DNA of 64,000 nucleotides, from positions 603,549 through 667,548 of the forward strand of contig OZ246416.1 of NCBI GenBank assembly GCA_965231095.1, read 5' to 3'. The first letter of the stretch is position 1; each line of letters opens with the position of its first letter. Origin of the DNA: an uncultured Gammaproteobacteria bacterium (GTDB taxonomy: Bacteria > Patescibacteriota > Patescibacteriia > XYB2-FULL-38-15). The position numbers and the translations under genes are program-made. The notes beneath the pieces are model-generated. The model searched no databases. It was not told where the DNA came from and saw only the letters and a list, made by a program, of their open reading frames with translations. Below are positions 31,549 to 64,000 of the stretch, piece by piece.

Positions 31549-34555
<3,007 letters not shown>

Positions 34556-35271: not shown

Positions 35272-35287
35272 CCAATCCTCCTCCCTC

Positions 35288-35497: not shown

Positions 35498-35799
35498 GTG
35501 CACGTCCTTTCCTCGCCGGCCTGCCGCCGCTTGCCATACCACACCTTGAGATCCGCGCCGTGTTCCCAGTGCTTGGCCAAAGCAACGACCGCCTGGCAGA
35601 GCTGGATGTCCGTGAGGCGAAGGTTGGTCTCGTCCTTCGTCTCCAGGGCGATGTCTCCCATCGCCTCGAATCCGCTCGCGAGCCGCGCTTCCATCCGCAA
35701 AGCCCAACGCTCGGCGAAACGGAGAATCCGCCCCCCGTAACTATCCTCGGGGTTTGCCTCGAGTACCCGCTCCCACTCTCCCTGATTTTTGACTTTCAT
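35494..35799 (-). CDS. Hypothetical 101-aa protein, GC-rich islet.
   Basis: MKVKNQGEWERVLEANPEDSYGGRILRFAERWALRMEARLASGFEAMGDIALE... No recognisable domain. It is coupled to the downstream small membrane proteins. Confidence 0.45.
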   Translation of the reverse strand: MKVKNQGEWERVLEANPEDSYGGRILRFAERWALRMEARLASGFEAMGDIALETKDETNLRLTDIQLCQAVVALAKHWEHGADLKVWYGKRRQAGEERTCT

Positions 35800-35820
35800 T
35801 TTTCTCCTCCCTCCGCCGCG

Positions 35821-36189: not shown

Positions 36190-36290
36190 CCTAACCCTCC
36201 TTCTTCCTCCCCATTACAACCTGACATATTAAATTATATCAAAATTATATTTTTGTCAACCCCGTCAGCCGAAATATTTTGTATCAAAAA

Positions 36291-39600: not shown

Positions 39601-40146
39601 GACCTTGTGGAAATCACCGGAATTTTATCGGAATCGGGCGGTGAGAAGCGTGTTAAAGTTTCCGAGCAATCTGATATCAAGGTTTTGGAAAACCAAGCAC
39701 CAGCCTCACGAATTCCAATTAAGCTTTCTGAAGTTGAGGAGGGGTTGGAAGGATGTTTGATCTCGGCCACCGGCGAACTTACAGAAAAAAGCGGCAGCAA
39801 TTTATATTTTGCCGATGACGATGGAGAATTAAAAATTTATTTCAAATCAACTTTGAGTTTTCCCAAACCAAAAATTGATATTGGCGACGAAATCGAAACT
39901 GTAGGAATTGTGAGCCAAACCAAAACCGGCTTCCGGCTTTTACCGCGCTACGAAACGGATTTAATAATCAAGGCGCCGTCCGGGGAAATTAATTTATCAA
40001 TTGCTAACGCTTCAACAAAAGACGGAAAAAACGACATCAATTTATATCTCGGCGCGGCCACGGGTCTGCTTGGCCTAACTTTAGTCGGTCTCGGAATCAA
40101 ATCCGGAACTTTGGGAAACTGGTGGAAAAAGATAAAAGGAATATAA
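36640..40146 (+). CDS. Giant cell-surface protein. Signal peptide, five lamin-tail-domain (LTD) repeats, a PKD domain, a Thr/Ser-rich linker and a C-terminal TM anchor.
   Basis: 1168 aa. There are five LTD-type repeats: IVINEIMWMGS...DEWIELKNTTDADIDLSGW; VVINEFVSDPAEGEEWIEIFNNKDSDIDLTGW; LLINELVADPTDGEVEWIEFYNPGSATINLNNW; IIINEVLPNPKGDDTQGEFIELKNVGATDIDLTGW; IFINEVLPNPKGSDDAEWLEIKNIDIEPIDLSGW. The PKD-like segment is DGSDSTDPDGDELIFSWNFGDGGEA...GKYKIILTVKDAAG. The C-terminus is LYLGAATGLLGLTLVGLGIK. A strong SD (AAGGAGGG) lies upstream. Confidence 0.75.
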   Translation: MRGKILRSFLIILIVAGGFFIFGKNSLAASGDIVINEIMWMGSTASTADEWIELKNTTDADIDLSGWTIEGAATSGGAITIAASYTIIPAHGYFLISNYLETDSSSKLNIAPNLVTTSVSLPNTQLLLILKDSTNAEIDRADDGSGVPLAGDNTNKYSMERNDVPGDGSLAINWHTATSSSGFDAGATEKGTPSSATPPPSGPICGNLVCEAGEDYLSCPADCAAPPPPTEINPGDVVINEFVSDPAEGEEWIEIFNNKDSDIDLTGWKVEDGVGTIVTLGTTITADGFQTIDFTSSKLNNSGDIIILKKSDGTIIDQVAYGNWNDGDVADNAPKASDPNSVARKIDGGDTNNDLADFSVTTTLTKNSANTITTPPSEETGGVSTPEETTPSSPPSWPVGALLINELVADPTDGEVEWIEFYNPGSATINLNNWKVEDGGETATTLSGSIGPLGFFVLERPKGLLNNSGDTIVLKDPAGIIIDQIAYGNWDDGDAGDNAPAAPDPNSTARKTDGQNSTNDFNDFSVTTPTRGSSNAGGLQQNPNGAYSHDIIINEVLPNPKGDDTQGEFIELKNVGATDIDLTGWKIGDASSKRYTIKASDFTSIILKPKEFFVLYRKTTGIALNNSGAESAKIFSPDGALVGTLEYSGAAAEDESFARETENYFWTSTPTPGKENIITRKNQTPAAAISAPEGAEIGEAINFDGSDSTDPDGDELIFSWNFGDGGEAAGANANYIYSTPGKYKIILTVKDAAGAVDTAEQFIIVTNHDGAADILPPDEQLIFINEVLPNPKGSDDAEWLEIKNIDIEPIDLSGWKLDDDEGGSRPYKIPEGTIISPGQFLIFKKSETKLAFNNTYDAARLLDPDGEIFFETSYDEVPEGASWARGDDGNFKWTTRLTPAAENIFQFQEKAAKKSSSTSAKKSTTFTETTLEDIRNLDLNDGARVTGQVIVEPGILGSQIFYIATPTGCPGIQIYMYSKNFPELKLGDLVEITGILSESGGEKRVKVSEQSDIKVLENQAPASRIPIKLSEVEEGLEGCLISATGELTEKSGSNLYFADDDGELKIYFKSTLSFPKPKIDIGDEIETVGIVSQTKTGFRLLPRYETDLIIKAPSGEINLSIANASTKDGKNDINLYLGAATGLLGLTLVGLGIKSGTLGNWWKKIKGI

Positions 40147-43001: not shown

Positions 43002-43214
43002 ATGAGCGACTCACGAGAACTTTCGGTTGAAGAAGCTCAGGGCCCCTGCGGCGATAGTCGTCACCGTTGGCGATTCGCTAACCCTCCGCAATACCGATGG
43101 AATACGCGCCAGGTTCTTGCCGAATGTACAAATTGCCACGGCACCTACTGGGCTCAACTCTCACCCGAAAAATGGCAACGGTTTCTGATGTATCTGGGAG
43201 CAAGCAGAAAATAG
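43002..43214 (+). CDS. Hypothetical 70-aa protein with Cys/His zinc-ribbon-like spacing (GC-rich islet).
   Basis: SD AAAGGAGGAG lies 6 nt upstream. ...GPCGDSRHRW...CTNCHGTYW. High GC. Confidence 0.45.
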   Translation: MSDSRELSVEEAQGPCGDSRHRWRFANPPQYRWNTRQVLAECTNCHGTYWAQLSPEKWQRFLMYLGASRK

Positions 43215-43232
43215 GCGGCAGAGGAGGGCTGT

Positions 43233-43484
43233 ATGGAGAACGAAACGCTGACCTTTTCTGACCTCGAACCAGGACAGAACTTCGCTGTTCTGCCTGGCAA
43301 GGGATATAGTCGCCGGCGGGACGGCGACTGGCTCCGGGCGAGTAACCTCTTCTTGAGAGTCGCGAATCCGAACGGCAACGCCTTGCGAACCTGCGACAAC
43401 GAGATCTTCAAGATTCCCGACTCCGTACCCGTGATCCGAGTGAACATCAGCGGCAAAGCCGCTAGAAGAAGGAGGGGGAGATGA
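43233..43484 (+). CDS. Hypothetical 83-aa protein (GC-rich islet).
   Basis: SD GAGGAGGG lies upstream. Its stop overlaps the next start (ATGA). Confidence 0.45.
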   Translation: MENETLTFSDLEPGQNFAVLPGKGYSRRRDGDWLRASNLFLRVANPNGNALRTCDNEIFKIPDSVPVIRVNISGKAARRRRGR

Positions 43485-43963
43485 GTGCTAGTGAACCCGT
43501 GAAGCCAGAACAGACGGTCTGCGAGAAGAACGTAGACGTCCCGACTCTTCTGGTCGAACCTCTCTCGGCATCGAGTCGGCCGATCCGAGAAACTTTCGTC
43601 CAATGGTTTGGCCGGGCGAACGGCGCGGATCTCGGAGAAAGACAGTTCCGTTTCCCTGTGCCGCTACACCACGCAGACCGGCACTGGGAGGGGAATCCTC
43701 TGTTTTGGAAGGTTACTTTTCTCGGTACATTCCAAAAGTTTCCTTGGAATCCCCGGTCCAGGGAAATATACCGTGAAATCGCACCGTTTAGAGATAACCC
43801 TGACGCCGAAATCTTGGTCGCTCACCTTCGCGAACCAAGACACCCCGAAGATCCTGAACTGGACTCTTTCGGCCTCATGATCCCGATGACGACTCACCTG
43901 ACAGACTCCGCGTACGGGATCATCGCGCCACGAGAGTACCGCGACAGGACTATTTTTCCATAG
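43481..43963 (+). CDS. Hypothetical 160-aa protein (GC-rich islet).
   Basis: SD AGGAGGGGGAG lies upstream, and the gene is translationally coupled to the preceding one. No recognisable domain. Confidence 0.45.
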   Translation: MSASEPVKPEQTVCEKNVDVPTLLVEPLSASSRPIRETFVQWFGRANGADLGERQFRFPVPLHHADRHWEGNPLFWKVTFLGTFQKFPWNPRSREIYREIAPFRDNPDAEILVAHLREPRHPEDPELDSFGLMIPMTTHLTDSAYGIIAPREYRDRTIFP

Positions 43964-44084
43964 AGGAGGTTCGACAAAAAACAACAGAGCACGACCTGCG
44001 GGTACGGCTCTTTTTTATTGCTTTTTTATTCTACTTCTTCTAAGATAGCCAGATCGTTCCTTGAAAAAAGGAGGAAAGATAAAA

Positions 44085-45152
44085 ATGGATCACGAACTTG
44101 CTTCGTGCCAGAATGTCCTAGCCGATCGCGCAACGCGAGACGAAGACGCCAGACGGCGTTATCCCGAGTCCGAGGACGATGATGGTTGGCTCATGGATCC
44201 CTCGAACGTTGTCTCGCCCTATCTAATTGATGTTTCAAAGATCATGAACTGCCGGGCGCTACGGCGAGGGGGCGACAAAACCCAGGTCCGACCACTTGAG
44301 CCGAACACACACATCCGGCGGCGCCTTTCCCATTCGCTCGGCGTAGCGGGACTTGCTGTGCCGGTCGCCAAATTACTTGGTCTCCACCCCGATCTCACGC
44401 ACGCCGCGGGTCTTGGCCATGACATAGGCCACACCCCTTTCGGTCACACGGGCGAAGTCACCCTCTCTCGGCTTTCCGGAAAAAAAATCTGCCACGAAAT
44501 TCTAGGTGTCGTCATCGCTCAAAAAGTGGAACGCCGCGGCCGCGGTTTAAACCTCACACACCAGACACTTCTCTGTCTCCGGGATCACTCGCGCGGCGAC
44601 GGCCAGTTTGGCACCGAAACGTGCGAGTCGGAAGAGAGCGCCCTCGCCATGCACACCGACAAGATTGACTACTTCTGGGCCGACTATCACGACGTCTTTG
44701 AACGGGGTGATTGTTTGAACCCATCGGACTATCCCGAACTGGTCGGACTAGCCCAGTGGTTCGGCAAGGGATATCGCTCACGTACGGCAAAATGCCTTCG
44801 GGCGCTCTGTCTTGAATCAAAGGCGGCCGGCCGGATTTCTTTCGGGCTGTGCGAAGAGGCGATGCGGCTCACTCGAGTCAAGGAAATCATGTACGGAAAA
44901 ATCTACAACGTCGTGAACCGCCGGACGGAAATCATTTCCTTGATCGAGAGAGTCTATCGGGCGCTTGAGAAAATCGCACCCCACCTCGATCCCGTGTTCT
45001 TCATCGCGCTCTTGGGTGACCAAGAACTTCTTGGTCTCGCAAAAAAAGACAACCTTTCGCCTGCCGACCTTGCCGGCCTCTCGGCCACGGAGATTCTTGC
45101 GAACCTCAAGGAGACGAAGCTCGACCTCACGAACCCTGACTTGGGGTGGTGA
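44085..45152 (+). CDS. dGTPase-like deoxynucleoside triphosphate triphosphohydrolase (HD-domain phosphohydrolase).
   Basis: SD AAAGGAGGAAAG lies upstream of the ATG at 44085. HD-domain motifs: IRRRLSHSLGVAGLA (LTHSLEV-like) and HDIGHTPFGHTGE (HDxGHxPFGH). GC-rich. Confidence 0.6.
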   Translation: MDHELASCQNVLADRATRDEDARRRYPESEDDDGWLMDPSNVVSPYLIDVSKIMNCRALRRGGDKTQVRPLEPNTHIRRRLSHSLGVAGLAVPVAKLLGLHPDLTHAAGLGHDIGHTPFGHTGEVTLSRLSGKKICHEILGVVIAQKVERRGRGLNLTHQTLLCLRDHSRGDGQFGTETCESEESALAMHTDKIDYFWADYHDVFERGDCLNPSDYPELVGLAQWFGKGYRSRTAKCLRALCLESKAAGRISFGLCEEAMRLTRVKEIMYGKIYNVVNRRTEIISLIERVYRALEKIAPHLDPVFFIALLGDQELLGLAKKDNLSPADLAGLSATEILANLKETKLDLTNPDLGW

Positions 45153-49143: not shown

Positions 49144-50571
49144 TTGCCTGCTATGTCTCTCACCCGTCAAGTCGCGCACAACATGATTTATCAAGTCGGT
49201 GGAAAAATTCTTTCCACTATTTTAGGTTTGGCGGCGCTCGCTATGATGACGAGATATCTGGGCCAAGACGGCTACGGCGGATACACCACTATAATTTCTT
49301 TTTTGCAATTTTTCGGAATTTTGGTTGATTTCGGTTTGACCTTGACCACGGTGCAGATGATTTCCGAACCAAACGCCAACCTCAATAAAATCACCAGCAA
49401 CATTTTTACTTTAAGATTTTTTTCCGCAATAATTTTTTTGGGCCTGGCCCCGCTCGTCGTTTTATTTTTTCCCTATGATGCGACTTTAAAGCTTGGCGTA
49501 GCCATTACCGCCTTTTCGTTTTTGTTCATCGCCTTGAACCAAGTTTTAATCGGCCTTTTCCAAAAAAATCTTCGCATGGAAAAAGTTGCGATCGCGGAAA
49601 ATCTTGGCCGAGTCGTCCTTGTCGCCGGAATCGCCATCGTCACATATCTCAAGGCCGGACTGCTCGCCGTCTTGCTCGCGGTAATTTTGGGAAGTTTCGC
49701 AAATTTTTTGATGAATTTTATTTTCTCCCTGAAATATGTCCGAATCAGATTTGTTTTTGACTGGCCGATTTGGAAAGAAATTTACCGCCGCTCCTGGCCG
49801 ATCGGACTTTCCATTATTTTCAATCTTGTATATTTAAAAGCTGACGTGATTGTTTTATCTCTTTTCCAAAGCCAAGCCACGGTCGGACTTTACGGCGCTT
49901 CTTACCGGGTTTTAGACGTCTTGACCACTCTGCCGATGATGTTTACGGGGCTTGTTCTGCCAATCCTCACCGCCGCGTGGGCGGAAAAAAATTTGGAAAG
50001 ATTCTCGCGGCTGGTAAAAAAATCTTTTGATTTTTTAATGATGATAATCGTCCCGATAATTTTTGGCGCGATGATACTTGGCGAACGAATTATGAGCGCG
50101 GTAGCCGGAGCTGATTTTTATCTTTCCGGAACAATTTTAAAAATTTTGATTTTGGCGGCCGGGGCGATTTTTGTCGGCACGCTTTTTGGCCACGTGATAG
50201 TCGCGATCCAAAAACAAAAACAAATGATCTGGGCCTACGCGACAGTTGCAATTATTTCTCTCCTCGCTTATATTATTTTAATCCCTCGCTACAGTTTTTG
50301 GGCGGCGGCCTGGATTACCGTCGCCTCGGAAGGAGCTATCGCCCTTGTTTCATTTCTGGTTGTCTTCAAAAATACCCGCCTGCTTCCTTCGGGAATGGTT
50401 TTAGGAAAATCAATCATCGCGAGCATTTTAATGAGCGCGGGAATTTATTTTCTAATTGGGATGAATATTTTATTTTTGATTTTACTCGGCGCGGCAATTT
50501 ATTTTTCCCTTCTTTATTTACTTCGGGGATTTAGCAAGGAAACCGTTTTGGAAATTATAAAATTAAAATGA
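49144..50571 (+). CDS. Wzx-like polysaccharide/oligosaccharide flippase (MOP superfamily).
   Basis: 475 aa, about 14 predicted TM helices. The N-terminus MPAMSLTRQVAHNMIYQVGGKILSTILGLAALAMMTRYLGQDGYGGYTTI is typical of polysaccharide-biosynthesis/flippase family proteins. Confidence 0.7.
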   Translation: MPAMSLTRQVAHNMIYQVGGKILSTILGLAALAMMTRYLGQDGYGGYTTIISFLQFFGILVDFGLTLTTVQMISEPNANLNKITSNIFTLRFFSAIIFLGLAPLVVLFFPYDATLKLGVAITAFSFLFIALNQVLIGLFQKNLRMEKVAIAENLGRVVLVAGIAIVTYLKAGLLAVLLAVILGSFANFLMNFIFSLKYVRIRFVFDWPIWKEIYRRSWPIGLSIIFNLVYLKADVIVLSLFQSQATVGLYGASYRVLDVLTTLPMMFTGLVLPILTAAWAEKNLERFSRLVKKSFDFLMMIIVPIIFGAMILGERIMSAVAGADFYLSGTILKILILAAGAIFVGTLFGHVIVAIQKQKQMIWAYATVAIISLLAYIILIPRYSFWAAAWITVASEGAIALVSFLVVFKNTRLLPSGMVLGKSIIASILMSAGIYFLIGMNILFLILLGAAIYFSLLYLLRGFSKETVLEIIKLK

Positions 50572-51878
50572 TTATACTTTTACCAATTTTATTAATTTTA
50601 TTCTTCTGCGGCTTTGCCTATTTGGCTTGGCGTAATTTACTTTGGGCCACCGCCGCGCTTCTCGCCCTCCTCCCATCTTATTTAATCAGATTTTCCCTTG
50701 GTTCAATGCCCATGACCTTGCTTGAAACAATGATTCTGATTCTCTTCGCGGTTTGGTTTTTAAAACTAAAATTAAAAAAAGAAAAATTCAGCTCGTCCCT
50801 CAAAATTTTAGAAAAGAAAAATTGGACGTGGCTGATTTTCGCCTGGCTGATTTTTGCCATGGTTTCTCTTCTCATTTCTCCGGACCTGCGCGCCGCCGCG
50901 GGAATTTTTAAAGCCTATTTTTTTGAACCTGTTCTTTTCTTGCTCGTTTTTTTGAGCGTCGTCAAAACAAAAAAAGATTTGGATATAGTTTTTTACGCCC
51001 TGGGAATTTCCGCGCTCGCTGTTTCCGCCTTCGCCATTTACCAAAAATTTACCGGCTTTGCCATTCCCAATCCAATCTGGCAAGCGGCGGCGACAAGACG
51101 TGTCACAAGTTTCTATGGATACCCAAACGCCATCGGACTTTATCTCGCCCCGATTGTTGTATTCTACGTCGGCTGGCTGATCTCAAAATTTCAAGCTTTA
51201 AGTTTTAAATTTCAAAAAACTTTAATTACAAATTTTAAACCATTAATTTTTCAACTCTTTGTTATTGTTCTCTCCCTCGTGGCCATCATCTTCGCCCGCT
51301 CCGAAGGTGCCTATGTTGGAGTTTTGGCCGGGTTATTTTTTCTTGGATTAATGACAAAAAAACTGCGCTGGCCAACGGTTGCCCTCGCGATTATTTTTGT
51401 TACGGTTATCGCGCTTGTCCCGCAATTTAGGCATTACGCCGTAGAGCAAATAACTTTTCAAAACGATTCGGGAAAAGTTCGCCAAATTATGTGGCGGGAA
51501 ACTTGGCGAATGCTTCACGATCGAATTTTTTCCGGCGCGGGCTTAGCGGGATATCAAGAAAATTTTGCCCCGTACCACAAGGCACTGCATATTGAAATTT
51601 ACCTCTACCCTCATAATTTATTTTTAAATTTTTGGAGTGAATTGGGCCTCGGCGGTTTGATTGTTTTTTTATTAATGATGATAAAATTTTTCAAAGACAG
51701 TATCAAAAACTTATTCGTTATTCGTTACTCGTTACTCGTTACTCTAATGGCCGCCATGATCACAATTCTTGTCCACGGCCTGGTTGACGTTCCCTATTTT
51801 AAAAATGACCTGGCGATTTTGTTTTGGCTAATAATTGGCTTGTCTCTTTTGGAATTAAAAAAGATGGCGAAAAAATAA
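50568..51878 (+). CDS. O-antigen ligase / Wzy-like polymerase family membrane protein.
   Basis: 436 aa, multi-TM, with a large loop between helices. It is translationally coupled to the flippase (4-nt overlap). Confidence 0.5.
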   Translation: MIILLPILLILFFCGFAYLAWRNLLWATAALLALLPSYLIRFSLGSMPMTLLETMILILFAVWFLKLKLKKEKFSSSLKILEKKNWTWLIFAWLIFAMVSLLISPDLRAAAGIFKAYFFEPVLFLLVFLSVVKTKKDLDIVFYALGISALAVSAFAIYQKFTGFAIPNPIWQAAATRRVTSFYGYPNAIGLYLAPIVVFYVGWLISKFQALSFKFQKTLITNFKPLIFQLFVIVLSLVAIIFARSEGAYVGVLAGLFFLGLMTKKLRWPTVALAIIFVTVIALVPQFRHYAVEQITFQNDSGKVRQIMWRETWRMLHDRIFSGAGLAGYQENFAPYHKALHIEIYLYPHNLFLNFWSELGLGGLIVFLLMMIKFFKDSIKNLFVIRYSLLVTLMAAMITILVHGLVDVPYFKNDLAILFWLIIGLSLLELKKMAKK

Positions 51879-52013
51879 TTTTAAATTACAACAGAAAAAC
51901 CTCCCCCGCGAAAAGCGGGTTTTTGTTTTATTTTGAACGGGATTGACATTTTTCTTATTTTATGTAAGAATATATTGTTTGGGACGTTCCAACTAAACGG
52001 AAGGAGGGGTTAG

Positions 52014-52769
52014 ATGGAAACCAAGCTGATGGCGATCGTAATCGCCCTTTTCGTGGCGAGCTGCGGACTGGACACCGAAGGCCTGGGCGAACCCGACGAA
52101 GGGACTCTGCCCGAAGCGTCCGACGATACGGAGCCCGACATCGGCCCGGACGAAATCGTGGCCGACGTTCCCGGAGAAGACGCGGCCGAGGAAGACAGCG
52201 GGCATGACGAAGCGACGCCCGAAGAGACGACTGAAGACACCGTTGACTCCACCGAAGATGCTGAGCCGGAAGACGCGGACGACGCCGAAGACGTAGTCGA
52301 CGACGCGGCCGACGAAGGCAGCGAAGCTGACGCGGAAGACGCAGGAACCGAAGATGGCGATGCCGAAGACGGAGCAATCGATCCCTGCGCTCTGCCGGAA
52401 ATTCCGACAACAGGAATCTTCATCTTCTACTGCTTTGACTACGATCTCCTCTCCCCATTCGCGCTGGAATTTCAAATCGAACAAGGGGGCCTTCCGGTTG
52501 TCAGCTGGCGAGGATCGCCCGAGTGCACGTTCACCTCTCGCTCTCGCCGATTCGAATGCACTCTCACCCCGCTCGTCTGGGATGCGACCTACGTCTGGAA
52601 CATCCGGCTTGACCCTGGGGTCGGGATCGGTTGGTCGTGCGGACCAGAACTCCTTGAGATCTGGGGCACGCCACGAGCCTGGCTCAATGGAGTCGAACTG
52701 GCCGTCGACCCGGTGACAAACGGCGACGGCGGCTGCAACCACAGCTTCACGACGCCACCTCCTCCCTAA
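52014..52769 (+). CDS. Acidic putative lipoprotein (GC-rich islet).
   Basis: SD GGAAGGAGGGG lies upstream. Signal peptide with lipobox-like VASC. The Asp/Glu-rich N-terminal half and a Cys-containing C-terminal domain follow. High GC. Confidence 0.5.
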   Translation: METKLMAIVIALFVASCGLDTEGLGEPDEGTLPEASDDTEPDIGPDEIVADVPGEDAAEEDSGHDEATPEETTEDTVDSTEDAEPEDADDAEDVVDDAADEGSEADAEDAGTEDGDAEDGAIDPCALPEIPTTGIFIFYCFDYDLLSPFALEFQIEQGGLPVVSWRGSPECTFTSRSRRFECTLTPLVWDATYVWNIRLDPGVGIGWSCGPELLEIWGTPRAWLNGVELAVDPVTNGDGGCNHSFTTPPPP

Positions 52770-52824
52770 CTGGGAAACGGGCGCCCGAGTTAATCACTCC
52801 GGCGCCCAATTTTTTACTAAAAAC

Positions 52825-52853
52825 TGGACAAAATCAGCGAAACGTGCTATAAT
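52825..52853 (+). promoter_or_regulatory. Sigma70-like promoter (TGGACA-17-TATAAT).
   Basis: TGGACA (52825-52830), a 17-nt spacer, then TATAAT (52848-52853). It may drive tRNA-Ser about 240 nt downstream, or a small RNA. Confidence 0.4.
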
Positions 52854-56342: not shown

Positions 56343-57215
56343 ATGACTCAAAAAATTCGTAAGGTTATTATCCCAGTTGCTGGTTATGGTACGAGGTTTT
56401 TGCCAGCGACCAAAGCTCAGCCGAAAGAAATGCTCCCGATTGTTGATAAACCGGTCATTCAATATATTGTTGAAGAAGCCGTAGCTTCGGGAATCACTGA
56501 TGTGATTTTGGTGACCGGCGCTTCAAAACGCGCCGTGGAAGATCATTTTGATTACAATTTTGAATTGCAAAGTTGGCTTAAAAAACAAGGCAAAGAAGTA
56601 ATTCGCCAAGAATTAAAAAATATCGCGGACATGGCGAATTTTATTTATATCAGACAAAAAGGTCCGTACGGCAACGCCACGCCGGTGATGAATTGCCGAC
56701 AGGTTGTGGGAAACGAACCGTTTGCCGTGCTTTCTGGCGATGATTTGATTTTAAACGGTATAAAACCTCGTCTCAAACAGTTAATAGAAGCTTACGAAAA
56801 ATATTCCGACCCGGTAATCACGGCCATCAAGGTCACCAAAGAAGAAACAAAAAAACACGGCATGCTTGACGCGCAAAAAATTGAAAAAAATATTTATCAA
56901 GTCAAAAAAATTGTAGAAAAACCCGGACCAGAAAAAACACCGTCACTTCTGGCTACGCTTTATGGCTATGTTTTAACACCTGATATTTTTGATGAACTGG
57001 AAAAATTAAAACCCGGAGCGGGCGGAGAGCTCTGGCTCCCGGAAGCTATTGATAATTTACTTAAGAAACGGCCGATTTATGCCTGTGAAGTTGATGGCAC
57101 TTATTACGATTGCGGTTCAAAAATCGGCTGGCTCAAGGCCAATGTTGATTTAGCTTTAGCGCGCCCGGAATTAAAACCAAGTTTTTCCAAATATTTGAAA
57201 AAATTAAAAGTATAG
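56343..57215 (+). CDS. galU: UTP--glucose-1-phosphate uridylyltransferase.
   Basis: 290 aa. KVIIPVAGYGTRFLPATKAQPKEMLPIVDKPVIQYIVEEA is the GalU signature. Confidence 0.85.
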   Translation: MTQKIRKVIIPVAGYGTRFLPATKAQPKEMLPIVDKPVIQYIVEEAVASGITDVILVTGASKRAVEDHFDYNFELQSWLKKQGKEVIRQELKNIADMANFIYIRQKGPYGNATPVMNCRQVVGNEPFAVLSGDDLILNGIKPRLKQLIEAYEKYSDPVITAIKVTKEETKKHGMLDAQKIEKNIYQVKKIVEKPGPEKTPSLLATLYGYVLTPDIFDELEKLKPGAGGELWLPEAIDNLLKKRPIYACEVDGTYYDCGSKIGWLKANVDLALARPELKPSFSKYLKKLKV

Positions 57216-57219: not shown

Positions 57220-58611
57220 ATGAAAAAACTCCTACCGCTTTTTTTACTTTTATCCTTCATCATTACCGCCGGACCAATCTGCAAGGGAACGCCGCAAGCG
57301 GCGCTTGAGGCAACAAAACCGGTCAACCTTGTTTATTGGCGGGTTTTTGACGACCAAGACGCTTTTGACGAAATCGTCACCGCCTACAAGGCAATTCATC
57401 CAAACGTTTCCATCACTTATCGCAAACTCCGCATGGAAGAATATGAAGAAACTCTTCTCGACGCCCTGGCTGAAGACCGCGGACCGGATTTATTTTCTAT
57501 TCCCAATACTTGGGTGCGGGAATATCAGACAAAAATTTTACCCCTGCCAAAATCCATCACTCTGCCGTATCAAGTGACGACCGGAACCATAAAAAAGGAA
57601 ACCACCATACAATTACAAACCGTGCCAACTCTTTCTCTTAGAGCCCTGAAAACAGATTTTATGGATCAGGTGGCAAAAGACGTTGTCCTAAAACATCAAG
57701 CAACTCCGGAGACCGCGGCCGAAGACAGAATTTTCGGTTTGCCTCTTTATCTTGATACCTTGGCGCTTTTTTATAACCGCGACATTTTAAATGCTTCAGC
57801 TATTCCCGAACCGCCCCGAACCTGGTCGGAATTTTCCGAAGACGTTAAAAAAATAGCGAAAATTGATAAACAAGGAAATATTTTACAATCGGGCGCGGCG
57901 TTTGGCACAGCCAAAAACGTTGAGCGCGCCGCAGACATTATTTCACTTTTAATGATGCAAAACGGAACAGCGATGACCGATGAGAACGGCAACGCGACTT
58001 TTGCCGCCATTCCCCCGGGATCATCTCTACCAAATCCGCCCGGAGAAGACGCCCTTGGTTTTTATACTGATTTTGCTTCGCCCTACAAAGAGGTTTACAC
58101 CTGGAACGGCAACCTGCCGAATTCGCTTGAAGCGTTTTCGACCGGCCGCGCCGCTTTTTTCTTTGGCTATTCTTATCATATCCCGCAAATCAGAAATCTC
58201 GCGCCAAAATTGAATTTTGCCATCTCCAAAATGCCGCAAATTGAAGGCAACCAAGAAATAAATTTTACCAATTACTGGGTGGAAACGGTTTCCACCAAAA
58301 CTAAAAATCAAAATGAGGCTTGGGATTTTTTACAGTTCGCCGCCAAAGCCGAGAATGCCGAAAAATTTTTGGCCAAAACAAAAAAACCGACCGCTCTCCG
58401 CTCGCTTGTCGCCAGCCAAATTGAAGACCTTGATTTGGCCGTCTTCGCTTCTGAACTTTTGACCGCCAAATCGTGGTATCAAGGAATGGACGCGCCGGCC
58501 ATGGAAAAAATATTTAGTGAAATGATAGAAAATGTGGTTGCCGGCACGCAAACCCTGAAGGAAGCGATCGGCTTGGCGCAAGGAAGAGTTAACCAGACAA
58601 TACGACAATAA
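57220..58611 (+). CDS. Extracellular solute-binding protein (family 1, sugar-type) with signal peptide.
   Basis: 463 aa. N-terminal signal MKKLLPLFLLLSFIITAG and family-1 SBP-like composition. No adjacent permease genes. Confidence 0.55.
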   Translation: MKKLLPLFLLLSFIITAGPICKGTPQAALEATKPVNLVYWRVFDDQDAFDEIVTAYKAIHPNVSITYRKLRMEEYEETLLDALAEDRGPDLFSIPNTWVREYQTKILPLPKSITLPYQVTTGTIKKETTIQLQTVPTLSLRALKTDFMDQVAKDVVLKHQATPETAAEDRIFGLPLYLDTLALFYNRDILNASAIPEPPRTWSEFSEDVKKIAKIDKQGNILQSGAAFGTAKNVERAADIISLLMMQNGTAMTDENGNATFAAIPPGSSLPNPPGEDALGFYTDFASPYKEVYTWNGNLPNSLEAFSTGRAAFFFGYSYHIPQIRNLAPKLNFAISKMPQIEGNQEINFTNYWVETVSTKTKNQNEAWDFLQFAAKAENAEKFLAKTKKPTALRSLVASQIEDLDLAVFASELLTAKSWYQGMDAPAMEKIFSEMIENVVAGTQTLKEAIGLAQGRVNQTIRQ

Positions 58612-58718
58612 AATTCCCGATTTCCAATTACTAATTTCCAATGAAATTTAAAAAATTAAATAATTTGTCATTAAACATTTATTAGAAATTGGAAATTAGA
58701 TATTAGAAATTTAAAAAT

Positions 58719-59147
58719 ATGCTTTTAAAACACAAAACCTTAATCACAATTATAATTGTTGGGTTTGGATTACTTGTCGCCCCCCCAACTTTTGCTTCCT
58801 GGCCGGCCACCCCGCTTTTGCCACCATGCACCACGGATGGCAATTGCGGTTTTAATGATTTTATTTTGCTCGGCGTCAATTTCACCAAAATGATTTTGGG
58901 TCTGGTCGGATCATTAGCTCTGCTTTTCTTTATTTATGGCGGCGTGATGTTTTTACTGGCCGGGGGAAAATCGGAAATGATTGAAAAGGGGAAAAAGATT
59001 ATTACCAATGCCGTGATTGGCGTCGCCATCGTGCTCGGCGCCTGGATAATCGTGAACTTTGCTATTGCCGCGCTTACCGGCACGCCGGTTAGTGATGTTA
59101 AAATTTTTGGCACGCAAGATTGGTGGCGAACTCCAGGGGAAGAATAA
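58719..59147 (+). CDS. Pilin-like paralog 1 (signal peptide + conserved two-TM C-terminal domain).
   Basis: 142 aa. Conserved core ...ILGLVGSLALLFFIYGGVMFLLAGGKSEMIEKGKKIITNAVIGVAIVLGAWIIVNFAI. Confidence 0.6.
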   Translation: MLLKHKTLITIIIVGFGLLVAPPTFASWPATPLLPPCTTDGNCGFNDFILLGVNFTKMILGLVGSLALLFFIYGGVMFLLAGGKSEMIEKGKKIITNAVIGVAIVLGAWIIVNFAIAALTGTPVSDVKIFGTQDWWRTPGEE

Positions 59148-59170
59148 TCTGAATTTCTAAAAAATAAAAT

Positions 59171-59797
59171 ATGAAAATCTTTAAAATTTTAGTTTTGGGT
59201 TTATTTGTTTTTTCGAGCTTCGCCTTTTTAATTCCAACAGCGCTGGCCTTGCGAACCTGCAGTTCCGGAACCGGCTGCGGACCGGGTGAAACTTGTGCCG
59301 AATTGCCCGCCGCAGACCAATGCGTTGACTCTTCAGGAGATAGAATTTACTACATTACCGGACGTTGTAGCGGCTATCCTTCTGTCGCTTGCCCCTCTGG
59401 ATTTACCTGTCAAACTATTCCTACCAGAGGATCTTATTGCATCACAAATGAAGCGGGAATGGCGTCTACAAGTTGTCCGGCAGGACAAGAGCTGGTAAAT
59501 GGTTCTTGCCAAGCAGCAAGCCAAGCCACCACCGGTCCGGTGGAATTTACCTCACCAATCGACGCCGTTTCCCCGACTCAAATTCTTGGTACGGTCATAA
59601 AAACCGTTTTGGGAATTCTCGGCGCGATTGCTCTCGCGATGTTTGTCTACGGCGGTTTTGTTTGGATGACTTCCGGCGGCAGCCCGGAGAAAATAAAAAC
59701 GGCGCGCACGACGCTCGTCTGGGCGGTGATTGGTATGGTTGTAATATTTTTAAGTTACGCCGCGGTTGATTTTGTCCTTTCAGCTTTTGGCGTTTAA
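59171..59797 (+). CDS. Pilin-like paralog 2 with a Cys-rich N-terminal ectodomain.
   Basis: 208 aa. Signal peptide; ten Cys in the variable region. Core ILGAIALAMFVYGGFVWMTSGGSPEKIKTARTTLVWAVIGMVVIFLSYAAVDFVL. Confidence 0.65.
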   Translation: MKIFKILVLGLFVFSSFAFLIPTALALRTCSSGTGCGPGETCAELPAADQCVDSSGDRIYYITGRCSGYPSVACPSGFTCQTIPTRGSYCITNEAGMASTSCPAGQELVNGSCQAASQATTGPVEFTSPIDAVSPTQILGTVIKTVLGILGAIALAMFVYGGFVWMTSGGSPEKIKTARTTLVWAVIGMVVIFLSYAAVDFVLSAFGV

Positions 59798-59800
59798 ACA

Positions 59801-60313
59801 ATGAAAAAAAATTTAACAAAAAGGAGTACGACTTTTTCCATCTGCTTGTTTTTAATTTTAAGCAGCTGGATTTTTATTTTTAGCAGCTCGCTAGCCGAGG
59901 CGACTTGCATTACAGGCGCTGAATGTCCCGCCGGACAAGTTCGCGGCGCCGGCCCTTGCCCTGATGCCGGACAAATAAATTGCGTTTCCGAGCCAACTTC
60001 TTCAACCTCTGAAACGACCGGTACTCCAGAAAAAGTAAAGTTAGAAAATCCCCTCGGCGGTACGGGAACAATCGGCGAGGTCACTTCCCCCACCAAACTT
60101 ATCGGAAATATTATAAAAACTATTTTAACGATTGTCGGCGCCTTGGCCCTCGCGATGTTTGTCTACGGCGGGTTCACCTGGCTCACCTCCTCCGGAAGTC
60201 CGGAGAAAGTTAAAAAAGGAAAGGATATTTTAATTTGGGCGGTCATTGGCCTGATAGTAATTTTTACAAGCTACACAGCGGTAGATTTTGTCTTAACCGC
60301 CTTGGGGGTTTAA
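59801..60313 (+). CDS. Pilin-like paralog 3 with a Cys-containing N-domain.
   Basis: 170 aa. Core IVGALALAMFVYGGFTWLTSSGSPEKVKKGKDILIWAVIGLIVIFTSYTAVDFVL. It starts 3 nt after the previous stop. Confidence 0.65.
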   Translation: MKKNLTKRSTTFSICLFLILSSWIFIFSSSLAEATCITGAECPAGQVRGAGPCPDAGQINCVSEPTSSTSETTGTPEKVKLENPLGGTGTIGEVTSPTKLIGNIIKTILTIVGALALAMFVYGGFTWLTSSGSPEKVKKGKDILIWAVIGLIVIFTSYTAVDFVLTALGV

Positions 60314-61183
60314 ATGAAAAAAAACTTTACGAAAATTTTTATCTGTCTCTTCGCGCTCTCTCTCGCTGGACTCATTACCGCACGCAATGCGGCGGCGGAA
60401 GAATTCGGAGCCTGCGAGTGCGTAGAAGATACCTCCATCACTGTCGGGGCTTGCAGCGAGTGCGCGACGGCCTGCGCAACTTCTTTTGAAGCTGAGGGCA
60501 GACCTTTTACCGTAAAGTCTTGTGAAAATTCCTCTGTCCCCGGCGCGAAAGAGTGTTTTTGTCATTTAATAACAGCTTCTATACGCCGCGAAGAATGCCG
60601 TATCGGCTGTGTTGGTTATACTTATAATTTTACTCCCGCGGCAGAGCCCGTGCCCGTTGACGAAAGAGATGCTTGCACCCGTCAAGAAGATTGCGTTGGG
60701 ACAGCCGGTGACTGCGGCGCGACTCGCTGTTTTTGTGACACCACGGCTAGTATTTGTCGATTTAAAAAAGACAGCGGCTCGGTTTGTTCGGGAAACTTTG
60801 AATGCAACTCAAATATTTGCACGTCTGTTCCTGGCAGAGAAGGAAAAACTTGTAAAGTCGGCGGGCTCACTCCTCCGGGCGAAGAGACTCCTGCGCCCAC
60901 CGGCGAAGAAGACGTTTTTCCGACTTATCAAATAAATTCTCCTATCGGCGAAGTTACTGGACCGCAACTTATCGGCCGAATTATTAAAGCAATCCTTGGC
61001 CTGGTCGGCGCCTTAGCGCTCGGAATGTTTGTCTACGGAGGGTTTACTTGGTTGACCTCGGCCGGCAGCCCTGATAAAATAAAGAAGGGCAAAGACATTT
61101 TAATCTGGGCGACAATTGGCCTCATCGTAATTTTTACAAGTTATACCTTGGTGGATTTTCTCCTGCGATCGTTTGGATTATAA
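60314..61183 (+). CDS. Pilin-like paralog 4 with a large Cys-rich N-terminal domain (more than 30 Cys).
   Basis: 289 aa. Core LVGALALGMFVYGGFTWLTSAGSPDKIKKGKDILIWATIGLIVIFTSYTLVDFLL. Confidence 0.65.
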   Translation: MKKNFTKIFICLFALSLAGLITARNAAAEEFGACECVEDTSITVGACSECATACATSFEAEGRPFTVKSCENSSVPGAKECFCHLITASIRREECRIGCVGYTYNFTPAAEPVPVDERDACTRQEDCVGTAGDCGATRCFCDTTASICRFKKDSGSVCSGNFECNSNICTSVPGREGKTCKVGGLTPPGEETPAPTGEEDVFPTYQINSPIGEVTGPQLIGRIIKAILGLVGALALGMFVYGGFTWLTSAGSPDKIKKGKDILIWATIGLIVIFTSYTLVDFLLRSFGL

Positions 61184-61223
61184 CCTTCCATTTTAAATGG
61201 AATCCCGAAAGGGGGTGAAGAAA

Positions 61224-61589
61224 ATGTTAAAAAAAGTATTTTTCTGTTTAACCATCTTGAGTCTTTTGACTCCAGTTGTGGTCTCCGCACAAAATGACAT
61301 CTTGGGCCTGAATGTCATTAACAATGCGAACATCGGCTTGCAAGCTTCAGATCCGAGAGCCGTGGCCGCGAGAATCATTAACGTGGCGTTGGGTTTCTTG
61401 GGTATTATCGCCGTGGTCATCGTCTTGTACGGTGGCTTCATGTGGATGACAGCAGCTGGTAATGAGGAAAGAATTTCCAAAGCAAAACAGATCTTGACCG
61501 CCGGTGTTATCGGCTTGGTCATTATCGTTATGGCTTGGGCAATCGCCTCTTATGTTGTGAAGACTTTGATGAACGTTACAAACACCTAA
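61224..61589 (+). CDS. Pilin-like paralog 5 (short form; codon usage and GC differ from its neighbours).
   Basis: Core FLGIIAVVIVLYGGFMWMTAAGNEERISKAKQILTAGVIGLVIIVMAWAIASYVV. The likely start is MLKKVFF at 61224, with a GGGGGTG SD-like element upstream; the track start is 61197. Confidence 0.6.
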   Translation: MLKKVFFCLTILSLLTPVVVSAQNDILGLNVINNANIGLQASDPRAVAARIINVALGFLGIIAVVIVLYGGFMWMTAAGNEERISKAKQILTAGVIGLVIIVMAWAIASYVVKTLMNVTNT

Positions 61590-61633
61590 AGATTATAATG
61601 GGGTGGGGTTAACTCCCCACCCCATTCTCGATT

Positions 61634-62056
61634 ATGTTAAAAATAGAAAAAGTAAAAATTTTAAAATTTTTTTGCGTCGCGGCAATACTCTTTATAATTT
61701 TTGGCGCAAACTTTGCTCTCGCCCAACCCGCGGATGAGGATACAAGTGACACAAGCGGCGTTCGCTCCGGACTTGGCGAAGCGGCAAATATCGGGGGGAT
61801 CCCCCAGACCGGCGGCGAAGAAGCTATCCCAAACTTGATTGGCAATATTATTATGGGTGCGCTTGGTTCGGTCGGCATTATCTTTTTAATTTTAATGATT
61901 GTCGGCGGAGTAATGTGGATGACCGCCTCGGGAAATGAAGAGCGGGTGACTAAAGCCAAAAGCTTGATTACAAACGCCGTGATTGGCATGGTCATTGTTT
62001 TTTCCGCTTACGCCATCACTTATTTTGTCACGGAAACTTTACTTAACACGAGATGA
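61634..62056 (+). CDS. Pilin-like paralog 6.
   Basis: 140 aa. Core ALGSVGIIFLILMIVGGVMWMTASGNEERVTKAKSLITNAVIGMVIVFSAYAITYFV. Confidence 0.65.
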   Translation: MLKIEKVKILKFFCVAAILFIIFGANFALAQPADEDTSDTSGVRSGLGEAANIGGIPQTGGEEAIPNLIGNIIMGALGSVGIIFLILMIVGGVMWMTASGNEERVTKAKSLITNAVIGMVIVFSAYAITYFVTETLLNTR

Positions 62057-62544
62057 AAAATTATAAAAAAATCTTGGCTGTTTTTCTTTTTCTGCTTGTC
62101 GGATTTTTTATTTTTTACGGAACAGCCTCTGCCTCCATTTTTGGCGGCCTTGATACGGCGCGCGAAACTGCCGGCTATTCAGAAGACACTAATATTTATT
62201 CCACCATCAGTCTGATAATTTCCGTCGCCCTTGGCTTTGTTGGCGTGGCTTTTTTAGGGCTCACGCTTTATGGCGGATTAATTTGGATGCTGGCCCGCGG
62301 CAATGAACAAGAAATTGAAAAAGCAAAAAGATTAATTGAAGCGGCGGTGATCGGTCTGGCGATTGTTTTTGCCGCTTACGCCATCACTTATTTTGTCACT
62401 GAAAAAATTCTTTCTTCTACCTCCGGCGGGGGAGAAGGATTCACTTGCGCTGAAGGTGAGGTTTCGTGTTCTTGCTCTGGTGACTCTTACCCCGAATCCC
62501 TTTGTGCTCCGCGCGCTGAAGATTGTGTTTGTACTTCTTTTTAA
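62053..62544 (+). CDS. Pilin-like paralog 7 with a C-terminal Cys-rich tail.
   Basis: 163 aa. Core ALGFVGVAFLGLTLYGGLIWMLARGNEQEIEKAKRLIEAAVIGLAIVFAAYAITYFV, then ...GFTCAEGEVSCSCSGDSYPESLCAPRAEDCVCTSF. Confidence 0.65.
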   Translation: MKNYKKILAVFLFLLVGFFIFYGTASASIFGGLDTARETAGYSEDTNIYSTISLIISVALGFVGVAFLGLTLYGGLIWMLARGNEQEIEKAKRLIEAAVIGLAIVFAAYAITYFVTEKILSSTSGGGEGFTCAEGEVSCSCSGDSYPESLCAPRAEDCVCTSF

Positions 62545-62568
62545 ATTAAATTTTCAAAAATAATTACT

Positions 62569-63006
62569 ATGAAATCTTTTAAAAAAAATTTTATTTTTGC
62601 CTGTTTTACTTTAGCGCTTCTCACCCTGGCTATGCCCCTTATTACGAATGCCGTGGCCGCCCCCGGCGACACTTTGAATAGATTGAAAGAAGTCGGCGGC
62701 GAAGCTTACGGCACCGGCGAGGAGCCGCCAAAAGATGTGACGGAAATTGTCGGTGGAGTAATTAAAACCGGCTTGAGTATTATGGGCGTAGTCGCCGCGA
62801 TTTTAATAATTTATGCCGGCTATCTTTGGATGACAGGTCGCGGGAAAGAAGAAAGAATCAACAAGGCCAAAGAAACTTTGGAGGCGGCAATTATTGGTTT
62901 AATTATTATTCTGGCGGCCTACGCCATTACTTATTTTGTGGTGGATAGATTGATGCAGGCCTCCTCGGGCTCGCCATCCGGCGCTACACCGCCCCCTACC
63001 CCATAA
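62569..63006 (+). CDS. Pilin-like paralog 8.
   Basis: 145 aa. Core GLSIMGVVAAILIIYAGYLWMTGRGKEERINKAKETLEAAIIGLIIILAAYAITYFV. Confidence 0.65.
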   Translation: MKSFKKNFIFACFTLALLTLAMPLITNAVAAPGDTLNRLKEVGGEAYGTGEEPPKDVTEIVGGVIKTGLSIMGVVAAILIIYAGYLWMTGRGKEERINKAKETLEAAIIGLIIILAAYAITYFVVDRLMQASSGSPSGATPPPTP

Positions 63007-63018
63007 TTTAACAAAACT

Positions 63019-63423
63019 ATGAAGACTATTTCTAAAAAAATTTTCGTCTCTGCTCTGCTAAGTCTAATTCTCGTCATTTTTGCTCTGCCGGTCTTTGCTC
63101 AAGTAGGAGAATTACAAAATTTTGGTCGAGCGGCTTATGGCGAAGCTGAAGCGCAATATCAGGAAACCCAAGGACCCCTCGTCATTGCTGGCAAAGTTAT
63201 CAACATCGCCCTGGGAGCTGTCGGGGTAATTGTAGTTATCTTATTTGTTTACAGCGGATTTCTCTGGATGACCGCCGCGGGCAACACGGAAAAAATTGAA
63301 AAAGCAAAAAAAATTCTTGGTAACGCAATTGTTGGGACAATGATTGTCATTATGGCTTACGCCATTTCCTATTTTGTTATCAATCAATTATTAAAAGCTG
63401 CCGGCACACCAGTCACGCCGTAA
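63019..63423 (+). CDS. Pilin-like paralog 9.
   Basis: 134 aa. Core ALGAVGVIVVILFVYSGFLWMTAAGNTEKIEKAKKILGNAIVGTMIVIMAYAISYFV. Confidence 0.65.
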   Translation: MKTISKKIFVSALLSLILVIFALPVFAQVGELQNFGRAAYGEAEAQYQETQGPLVIAGKVINIALGAVGVIVVILFVYSGFLWMTAAGNTEKIEKAKKILGNAIVGTMIVIMAYAISYFVINQLLKAAGTPVTP

Positions 63424-63439: not shown

Positions 63440-63475
63440 TTTAAAATCCTCCAAGTAATTGGGGGATTTTTTGTG
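63440..63475 (+). terminator. Terminator-like hairpin after the pilin array.
   Basis: ATCCTCC-aagtaatt-GGGGGAT (one G-U pair) followed by TTTTTT. Confidence 0.35.
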
Positions 63476-63520
63476 TAAAAAAACGGGCGTTCCAGTTTGA
63501 ACTGAAACGCCCTTCCCTCC

Positions 63521-64000
63521 TTACCACGGGTTCCCGATGTTAACCCTTTGTTCCTCCCACCCGACACAGAACAGGTGTTCCGTATCGGACCTCGTGACTG
63601 GCCGATCGAAGTTCGGGGCGAGGTACTCCTCGAACTCGAAGTGGTGCCGCTCACAACCGGTCCGGAGATCGGTCTCGGCGAGCGGGGCGTAGAACTGCCC
63701 CTCGGTGTGCGGCGGCAGAAGTGGCAGACCGGCGTAGAGGTCAGTAAAGGACAGGTCTGCCCCGTCCATCCTGACCCTGACGTACCGATCCTTGTTGTTC
63801 ACGACCCGCACGAGATGCGGACCGCGCCACTGGTTCGGATAACCGTGGCCTTCCACGAAGGCCAAGTCCGGCGGCGGGGGCGGCGGAACGAAGTATCCGC
63901 CGCCGAAGCCGCCACCGTATCCCGAAGCGCCGTAGGCCGCGGGCGGAGTGTAGTTCGGGTAGCCGTAGGCTTGCCCGCCCCAGATGCCGCAGCCAAGCGA
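63521..64000 (-). CDS. Hypothetical GC-rich protein, 5'-partial (continues beyond the window end), with a Gly/Tyr/Pro-rich low-complexity N-terminal region.
   Basis: The minus-strand frame is open from 64000 down to the stop at 63521. It reads ...AYGYPNYTPPAAYGASGYGGGFGGGYFVPPPPPPDLAFVEGHGYPNQWRGPH...HHFEFEEYLAPNFDRPVTRSDTEHLF... GC is about 60%. Confidence 0.4.
   Translation of the reverse strand, partial: SLGCGIWGGQAYGYPNYTPPAAYGASGYGGGFGGGYFVPPPPPPDLAFVEGHGYPNQWRGPHLVRVVNNKDRYVRVRMDGADLSFTDLYAGLPLLPPHTEGQFYAPLAETDLRTGCERHHFEFEEYLAPNFDRPVTRSDTEHLFCVGWEEQRVNIGNPW

Follow-up and report, generated by a model that had tools for sequence, protein, structure and literature searches.

An operon of nine VirB2-like pilin genes led by a solute-binding protein gene in a Patescibacterium

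Introduction

Patescibacteria account for much of the diversity of bacteria. We analysed a stretch of 64,000 nucleotides of DNA from one of them (contig OZ246416.1 of assembly GCA_965231095.1, forward strand, positions 603,549 to 667,548; hereafter the window), which carries a tandem array of nine genes for type IV secretion system (T4SS) pilins. An earlier note, made from the sequence without database searches, had pointed out this array and made several claims about it, which are taken up below.

Pilin arrays as a kind have already been published, and the earlier note correctly rediscovered them. The study of Quinonero-Coronel et al. (2025; PMC12102498), which used the same Pfam model as we did, reports 441 arrays of 2 to 11 pilin genes in 383 Patescibacteria assemblies, a mean identity of 25% between the paralogs of an array, and a pilin gene near virB4 in 1,135 of 1,948 assemblies. 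A literature count puts VirB4 itself in 2,417 of the 3,035 Patescibacteria assemblies considered (80%). The published arrays share with the window array the family PF18895, the tandem arrangement of divergent paralogs on one strand, a chromosomal location, the lack of a nearby relaxase gene and, often, a large distance from virB4. They are most abundant in Microgenomatia and Saccharimonadia, whereas the window array is Falkowbacteria-like. The accessible part of that paper makes no mention of a solute-binding protein, of cysteine-rich ectodomains, of a conserved gene order or of a hairpin within the arrays.

The only genetic study is that of Wang et al. (2023; PMC10633639) on Candidatus (Ca.) Southlakia epibionticum ML1, in which the T4SS and the series of pilins encoded inside its cluster (SEML1_0006-0019) are essential for epibiotic growth. 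In two Paceibacterales genomes, those of Ca. Minisyncoccus and Ca. Microsyncoccus, pilin genes of this type rank with the most strongly expressed of the genes that have no known function (PMC10936435). The window array as first described would be one more example of its kind; the comparative results presented here are more useful, giving handles that can be tested.

The nine genes encode hairpin pilins of one family

The locus is a genuine operon of nine VirB2-like T4SS pilin genes. As the earlier note had stated, nine consecutive open reading frames (ORFs) on the plus strand fill positions 58719-63423; they encode proteins of 121-289 aa and are separated by gaps of -4 to 44 nt (Table 1). All nine products score above the gathering score of PF18895 T4SS_pilin (30.6-52 bits for a gathering score of 26.6 bits, E 4e-7 to 8e-14), with near full-length coverage of the model. 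This is the family that the earlier note had named, and the precomputed Pfam annotation of an independent assembly agrees with the assignment. Orthologs are named 'pilin' by NCBI. In a search of a 1.84 billion protein library, the core profile of the array hit 86,925 cluster representatives.

Every protein of the array begins with a Lys-rich N-terminus followed by a hydrophobic stretch and A-x-A-type sites, as read from hydropathy and motifs, and has, towards the C-terminus, two segments of strong hydrophobicity spaced by about 20 residues. The proposal of a signal peptide and a two-helix core in each protein is borne out by these features and by AlphaFold2 (AF2) models, which show the hairpin. 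In the model of gene 3, helices 97-129 and 134-167 are joined by a loop (pLDDT about 88); in that of gene 4, a disordered Pro/Glu linker connects the hairpin (217-248/253-286) to a confidently folded, disulfide-rich ectodomain. Alignment of the nine cores gives the consensus LG.VG..AL..F.YGGF.WMT..G..E.I.KAK.IL..AVIGL.IIF..Y.....FV, in which four Gly residues are invariant. The motif proposed earlier was right in substance; as typed it fails to match, owing to a register slip in the loop.

Pairwise identity among the nine paralogs averages 42% in the cores (30-79%) and 32% over the full length. The two subfamilies do not alternate along the array, as had been thought, and form two contiguous blocks, genes 2-4 and genes 5-9, with gene 1 as an outlier. 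Sizeable ectodomains are confined to genes 2-4. These are indeed Cys-rich, with 10, 5 and 21 Cys rather than the more than 30 announced; 30 Cys are reached only in a separate 603-aa paralog described below. The proteins of genes 5-9 expose only about 25-40 residues, in line with the short N-domains ascribed to them, and the 6 Cys of gene 7 sit in its C-terminal tail. The deviant composition attributed to gene 5 concerns its third codon positions, whose GC content (GC3) is 0.57 compared with 0.38-0.49 in the other genes, while its overall GC content is an ordinary 0.45. For this gene the lengths of its orthologs favour the start at 61224, which was also the one chosen earlier.

The likeness to TrbC/VirB2 pilins is remote. 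Five of the nine proteins match PF04956 TrbC/VirB2 below its gathering score of 27.9 bits (12-20 bits, the best being gene 8 with 20.0) and four have no match, so that the resemblance claimed for the array exists without reaching the threshold of the family; some close homologs do bear a precomputed PF04956 match. When the core profile was aligned with that of four annotated VirB2/TrbC proteins, hhalign returned a probability of 48.9% (E 1.7e-4) over 58 columns, with both helices in register. All nine proteins also align over most of the 80 positions of NF045849, the model of a pilin-like protein of Mycoplasma integrative and conjugative elements, with 15.6-37.2 bits (E 1e-2 to 2e-9), below its cutoff of 40 bits.

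The top matches of the core profile are single chains with 2-17 pilin cores (P0089-P0093 and others), for example one of 1,775 aa with 17 cores. Two explanations are considered for these chains: natural 'polypilin' fusions, or gene calls running through stop codons in recoded lineages.

Gene order and selection

Related loci were retrieved using the three closest cores. The closest belong to metagenome-assembled genomes of the Patescibacteria group and of Falkowbacteria, followed by Magasanikbacteria and Uhrbacteria. In comparisons with three related genomes (loci L002, L003 and L004), every window gene that is represented there finds its best match in the gene occupying the same place in the array; L002 holds the first eight genes only. 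The gene order thus predates these species, and its conservation indicates that the array is not a cassette for shuffling variants. The ratio of non-synonymous to synonymous substitution rates (dN/dS) of orthologous cores, calculated over these three genomes, is 0.02-0.2, which corresponds to strong purifying selection. The ORFs are therefore translated genes, and the objection that they could be untranslated repeats fails.

Conservation differs strongly between genes and between domains. Orthologs of gene 1 stand first in L002, L003 and L004, with core identities of 87-99%. For the ectodomains of genes 2-4, identity between orthologs goes down to 25-44%, and the alignments have many gaps. In gene 2 the comparison with L002 gives 25% identity for the ectodomain and 92% for the core, and the ectodomain appears to have been replaced between close relatives. 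Orthologs of gene 4 hardly differ over their last 90 aa, and their ectodomain varies around a conserved Cys framework. Because dS is saturated (>1) and several pairs of ectodomains barely align, we make no claim of positive selection. Gene 5 is the most conserved paralog in the comparison with L003 and L004, the two more distant relatives; its best BLAST alignments show 83% identity in L002, 90% in L003 and 95% in L004. The core of gene 9 is 59-60% identical to those of L003 and L004. A search for recombination substrates among the paralogs found only short stretches at 60-81% DNA identity; long identical tracts were absent, as were silent cassettes and invertible elements.

A solute-binding protein gene leads the array

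The array is preceded by a gene for a MalE-like protein that matches PF01547 SBP_bac_1 with 90.3 bits (gathering score 26 bits) and whose relatives in the PDB are sugar-binding proteins of ABC systems (E down to 2e-11). Such a gene adjoins the array or is embedded in it in 39 of 40 testable genome loci from outside the Saccharibacteria, often overlapping the first pilin gene by 4 nt. A metagenome scan seeded on the binding protein found a pilin gene directly 3' of it in 66 of 68 loci. The adjacency is near-obligate, and the binding-protein gene belongs to the pilin unit. No family of ABC permease or ATPase recurs near the arrays, and none is encoded beside the binding-protein gene in the window.

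Directly upstream of the binding-protein gene, a GalU homolog is found in 30 genome loci and in 29 of 56 metagenome loci, about half of them, and is thus a frequent, non-universal partner. The AT-rich region that separates the binding-protein gene from gene 1 may be a regulatory region for the pilin genes, judging from its repeats and promoter-like site.

We found no link between a solute-binding protein and these pilins in the literature, subscription-only papers lying outside the search. More generally, we did not find described in the searchable literature an architecture that joins a binding-protein leader, decorated Cys-rich members at the 5' end, a stem-loop behind the candidate major pilin and a location remote from VirB4.

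Decorated pilins and membrane topology

We surveyed terminal extensions in 357 pilins from 46 arrays outside the Saccharibacteria. Long N-terminal regions are present in 76 of these pilins and long C-terminal tails in 59. The extensions contain 6-8 Cys per 100 aa, compared with 0.13 in the core. Decorated members concentrate at the 5' end of the arrays: they make up 62 of the 96 pilins in the first quartile and 7 of the 65 in the last. The arrays of Saccharibacteria are essentially undecorated.

Cys-rich domains occur at either end of the hairpin and never in its loop. We infer from this distribution a topology in which both termini of the hairpin would be extracellular and the short Lys-rich loop would lie inside the cell. 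Such a topology would account for the acceptance of disulfide-rich domains at either end of the proteins but never within the core. The presence of a DsbA-like gene in the window also speaks for it.

Stem-loops within and at the end of the array

The stem-loop that follows gene 5 has a calculated folding energy of -24.6 kcal/mol (z = -4.3), and none of 200 shuffled sequences folds as well. A strong intergenic hairpin is present in 35 of the 43 arrays examined, and in 27 of these 35 it lies 3' of a pilin of the gene-5 type. The sequences of these hairpins are unrelated between lineages, and they lack a U-tract. The stem-loop is a candidate mRNA 3' end, processing site or stabilisation site. As the gene-5-type pilin is both the most conserved and the one followed by the stem-loop, it is a candidate for the major subunit.

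Table 1. Coordinates of the pilin genes and associated features in the window
Feature	Position	Strand	Description
Pilin gene 1	58719..59147	+	142 aa; PF18895 39.8 bits; divergent core, short N-segment with 2 Cys, 22-aa C-terminal tail
Pilin gene 2	59171..59797	+	208 aa; PF18895 41.6 bits; Cys-rich N-terminal ectodomain of about 105 aa, 10 Cys
Pilin gene 3	59801..60313	+	170 aa; PF18895 52 bits; small ectodomain with 5 Cys
Pilin gene 4	60314..61183	+	289 aa; PF18895 49.1 bits; ectodomain at residues 30-180 with 21 Cys, Pro/Glu-rich linker, hairpin
Pilin gene 5	61224..61589 (ATG at 61197 gives 130 aa)	+	121 aa; PF18895 37 bits; short; highest GC3 in the array
Stem-loop after gene 5	61597..61626	+	perfect 12-bp GC-rich stem, no U-tract
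Pilin gene 6	61634..62056	+	140 aa; PF18895 38.9 bits; short type
Pilin gene 7	62053..62544	+	163 aa; PF18895 32.3 bits; short N-segment, C-terminal Cys-rich tail (6 Cys); 4-nt overlap with gene 6
Pilin gene 8	62569..63006	+	145 aa; PF18895 32.7 bits; short type, Ser/Pro/Thr-rich C-terminal tail
Pilin gene 9	63019..63423	+	134 aa; PF18895 30.6 bits; short type, last in array, fastest-evolving core
Terminator-like hairpin with T-run, closing the operon	63443..63475	+	read from sequence
Convergent terminator-like hairpin, for the downstream minus-strand genes	63485-63512	-	terminator scan
GalU-like nucleotidyltransferase	56343..57215	+	290 aa; Pfam NTP_transferase (precomputed); 4 nt upstream of the binding-protein gene
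MalE-like solute-binding protein homolog (SBP_bac_1)	57220..58611	+	463 aa; N-terminal signal sequence, near-invariant Cys21, lipoprotein-like
AT-rich intergenic region	58620..58718	+	23-nt inverted repeat, 19-nt direct repeat, promoter-like site (pattern matches only)
Tenth PF18895 member	18296-20107	+	603 aa; 37.3 bits; hairpin at residues 92-155, then Cys-rich C-terminal domain of about 450 aa; 30 Cys overall

Comparison with described systems

Among the closest known systems are the arrays of Southlakia and other Saccharibacteria, which likewise consist of tandem, divergent paralogs encoding homologous hairpin pilins in a monoderm episymbiont. The number of pilins is conserved per lineage, which implies that the subunits are non-redundant. 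The Saccharibacteria arrays hold six (plus one) undecorated pilins and lie about 5-10 kb from a gene for VirB4, an ATPase of this kind being found at that distance in ten loci; none of the 19 loci has a binding-protein gene beside the array. In contrast, the window array comprises nine genes, three of them with Cys-rich ectodomains, is led by a binding-protein gene and has no VirB4 gene within the 64-kb window and 5 kb downstream of it, on a contig of 886,192 bp. A VirB4-like ATPase was also seen near the single non-Saccharibacteria array that lacks the binding protein. When a search was seeded with the VirB4 of Saccharibacteria, the matches listed were close Saccharibacteria relatives only. 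Two architectures can thus be distinguished: that of Saccharibacteria, placed in a T4SS cluster, undecorated and devoid of a binding protein, and the Falkowbacteria type, led by a binding protein, decorated and remote from VirB4. For this reason, results obtained in Saccharibacteria may not transfer to the rest of the phylum.

Like the pilins of the TrbC/VirB2 type (Agrobacterium VirB2, RP4 TrbC), the window proteins have a long signal peptide and two hydrophobic helices with a short loop between them, and the short members are also small when mature. They differ in a loop longer by about 8 residues, in the lack of flanking VirB1 or VirB3 genes and of any sign of a cyclisation machinery, in the monoderm nature of the host and in the presence of ectodomains of 100-450 aa on some members. 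The Mbov_0395/MMCAP2_0565 family (NF045849) is matched across nearly its whole model and more strongly than TrbC/VirB2, which links the PF18895 pilins to monoderm systems of the MPF-FATA type; its members are encoded by a single gene within a mobile element, whereas the window carries a chromosomal array. In Bartonella and Anaplasma (cited in PMC12102498), T4SS pilin genes have also undergone tandem amplification and divergence in a host-associated bacterium, but these VirB2 arrays lie inside canonical diderm VirB operons and are read as a means of antigenic variation. The window array, by contrast, keeps a fixed order across genomes and offers no substrate for recombination.

Assembly model and alternatives

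We propose, with a probability of roughly 0.55, that the nine Sec-exported hairpin pilins would form a filament at the cell surface that is related to the T4SS and includes decorated minor subunits, with the lipid-anchored MalE-like protein as a partner that binds glycans. The family membership, the signal sequence and hairpin, the selection on the hairpin, the gene order, the coupling to the binding-protein gene and the conserved stem-loop are established by the results above, while the assembly into a pilus and the roles given to its parts are inferred. The pilins would be exported by Sec and, after cleavage of the signal peptide, would sit in the membrane as hairpins with both ends outside. 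A VirB4-type T4SS ATPase encoded elsewhere in the genome would then extract the hairpins and stack them into a surface filament or stalk contacting the host cell. The short and highly conserved gene-5-type pilin would be the major subunit, and the RNA hairpin behind its gene would make its transcript more abundant than those of the genes farther downstream. Further structural subunits with fixed, non-redundant roles might be the products of genes 6-9, and genes 2-4 might encode minor subunits presenting fast-evolving disulfide-rich ectodomains for binding to the host surface. Beside these decorated subunits the binding protein could recognise or capture a host glycan. The handles mentioned above follow this scheme: a candidate major subunit, defined by the gene-5 type and its stem-loop, and candidate host-binding minor subunits, defined by disulfide-rich ectodomains at either terminus. 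The conserved sugar-binding partner hints at what the structure recognises.

Several observations speak against a filament of this kind. As the earlier note had remarked, no VirB4/VirD4-type ATPase is encoded among the window ORFs scanned; VirB4, VirB6 and VirB3 are all absent from the 58 kb upstream and the 5 kb downstream of the array, and no VirB4-like ORF lies within 6-10 kb of a binding-protein-linked array in any locus. If the proteins that bear them were major subunits, ectodomains of 100-190 residues would pose a packing problem. The candidate major subunit is designated from conservation and a single RNA hairpin only, and the part given to the binding protein in the pilin system is deduced from gene order alone. 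Comparison of the core profile with the PDB returned no relevant solved pilin, and fold searches with the hairpin retrieved generic helical hairpins only, such searches being uninformative for a bare hairpin. Lastly, a 2025 review considers a Patescibacteria pilus an attractive possibility that is unproven, none built of these proteins having been seen.

In the main rival explanation the hairpin would be a membrane anchor or oligomerisation module only, and pilins and binding protein would form a membrane-embedded surface complex that captures or imports host sugars or displays domains, without a T4SS ATPase or a filament. The arrays linked to a binding protein are never near VirB4 while those of Saccharibacteria are, the coupling to the solute-binding protein is near-obligate with no ABC permease or ATPase nearby, the neighbouring genes (GalU, Wzx, Wzy_C, DUF2079, MGDG synthase) relate to the cell envelope and glycans, and large ectodomains suit display more than helical packing. 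We nevertheless consider this explanation less likely than the filament. The 25-40 residues exposed by genes 5-9 leave little to display, homologs are encoded inside bona fide T4SS clusters, and T4SS genes are often scattered, the published proximity of pilin genes to virB4 (1,135 of 1,948 assemblies; PMC12102498) illustrating this. A transporter made of two-helix subunits plus a binding protein is, to our knowledge, without precedent. Somewhat more speculative, and in our opinion unlikely, is the idea that the operon of Falkowbacteria, Magasanikbacteria, Uhrbacteria and related Parcubacteria specifies a distinct, undescribed apparatus at the surface, in which the lipid-anchored binding protein would cooperate directly with a fixed set of the hairpin proteins and serve as tip or gate, recognising glycans, on a filament or pore through which host material is captured. 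Such an apparatus would have no genetic coupling to the T4SS ATPase cluster and might not depend on it.

The earlier note suggested a surface-display or adhesin-variation system. Spelled out, this would be variation of a surface antigen or adhesin by means of interchangeable paralogs that are swapped or differentially expressed, each exposing another N-terminal domain. In genes 2-4 the ectodomains do evolve far faster than the cores, as the values for gene 2 illustrate, and PMC12102498 considers the VirB2 paralogs arrayed in Bartonella and Anaplasma in terms of variation. However, the three related genomes keep the nine genes in the same number and order, each recognisable at its own position (the first eight in L002), the similarity between paralogs at the DNA level is limited to the short stretches described above, with neither silent cassettes nor invertible elements, and six of the nine proteins are almost devoid of a variable domain, all nine genes being co-oriented in one operon. 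Variation is thus improbable, and nothing at the locus speaks for the role in DNA uptake that had also been suggested. We give hardly any credit to the idea that the ORFs are non-coding or decayed repeats, or encode other small membrane proteins, such as holins or bacteriocin-immunity proteins, that match the pilin model by composition. Hydrophobic two-helix proteins do match many unrelated membrane families weakly, but here every match exceeds the curated threshold and covers the full length of the model, the cores evolve under the strong constraint measured over three genomes, the core profile has its many thousands of matching cluster representatives, and signal peptides and exported Cys-rich domains are out of keeping with holins. 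The T4SS-related filament remains the reading that we prefer.

Other features of the window

The window as a whole is chromosomal housekeeping DNA, with genes for 23S and 5S rRNA, RNase P, tRNAs, UvrA, RuvB, TrpRS and RNase J. The locus is also present in an independent assembly, where rpoB lies about 1.6 kb beyond the array. A tenth PF18895 member is encoded far upstream of the array. Its gene is wedged between those for the alpha (16994-18139) and beta/TPP (20111-21010) subunits in a 2-oxoacid:ferredoxin oxidoreductase operon, and a DsbA-like gene (15333-16076) lies just upstream of this stretch. Solo pilin genes with cores 55-65% identical to that of gene 3 also occur in loci L007, L009, L011, L012, L013, L016, L021, L025 and L028. 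Their contexts are of the housekeeping type (Band_7, Fpg, AI-2E transporter), with no binding protein nearby, and VirB4 was looked for beside them and not found.

The 23S (31545-34557, minus strand) and 5S genes have no adjacent 16S gene. Beside the 23S gene, where a 16S gene might be expected, lies a 1.2-kb block (35001-36201) with a GC content of 0.60, which has no match in Rfam and contains ORFs on both strands, including a receiver-domain-like one at 35821-36189 (minus strand). A tRNA-Ile gene with anticodon UAU is found at 27357-27432 (minus strand). Two further high-GC islands, at 43151-44951 and 52001-52851, are unrelated to each other; the first holds a gene for an HD-domain protein (44061-45152) and the second an acidic lipoprotein-like ORF (52014-52769, lipobox VASC) with a homolog in L010.

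Minus-strand genes convergent with the array (63521-64000 in the window and 10503-11416 in L001) encode two lipoprotein-like, Gly/Tyr/Pro-rich proteins of 171 and 133 aa that have no Pfam match. Their GC content is 0.60-0.62 (up to 0.65 over 500 nt) and their GC3 about 0.8, for a genome GC content of 0.44. Misassembly was ruled out, as the independent assembly carries these genes. Recent transfer was considered as well; the same position in L003, L004 and L006 also holds high-GC genes, whose sequences are barely similar. In 13 related loci (L050:14165-15931 and 12 others) a 588-aa protein with at least 8 transmembrane segments and no Pfam match is encoded 3' of the array.

Genes for a Wzx flippase, Wzy_C, DUF2079 and MGDG-synthase proteins recur near the arrays, and in the window Wzx and Wzy_C genes lie at 49144-51878, about 7 kb upstream of the array. 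The Wzy_C family includes pilin O-glycosylases. Since several pilins end in Ser/Thr/Pro-rich tails and Wzx and Wzy_C genes lie near the arrays, glycosylation of the pilins is possible. On the plus strand, the gene at 36640-40146 encodes a protein of 1,168 aa with five lamin-tail domains and a PKD domain, which is a candidate for a large surface protein and could also take part in host attachment.

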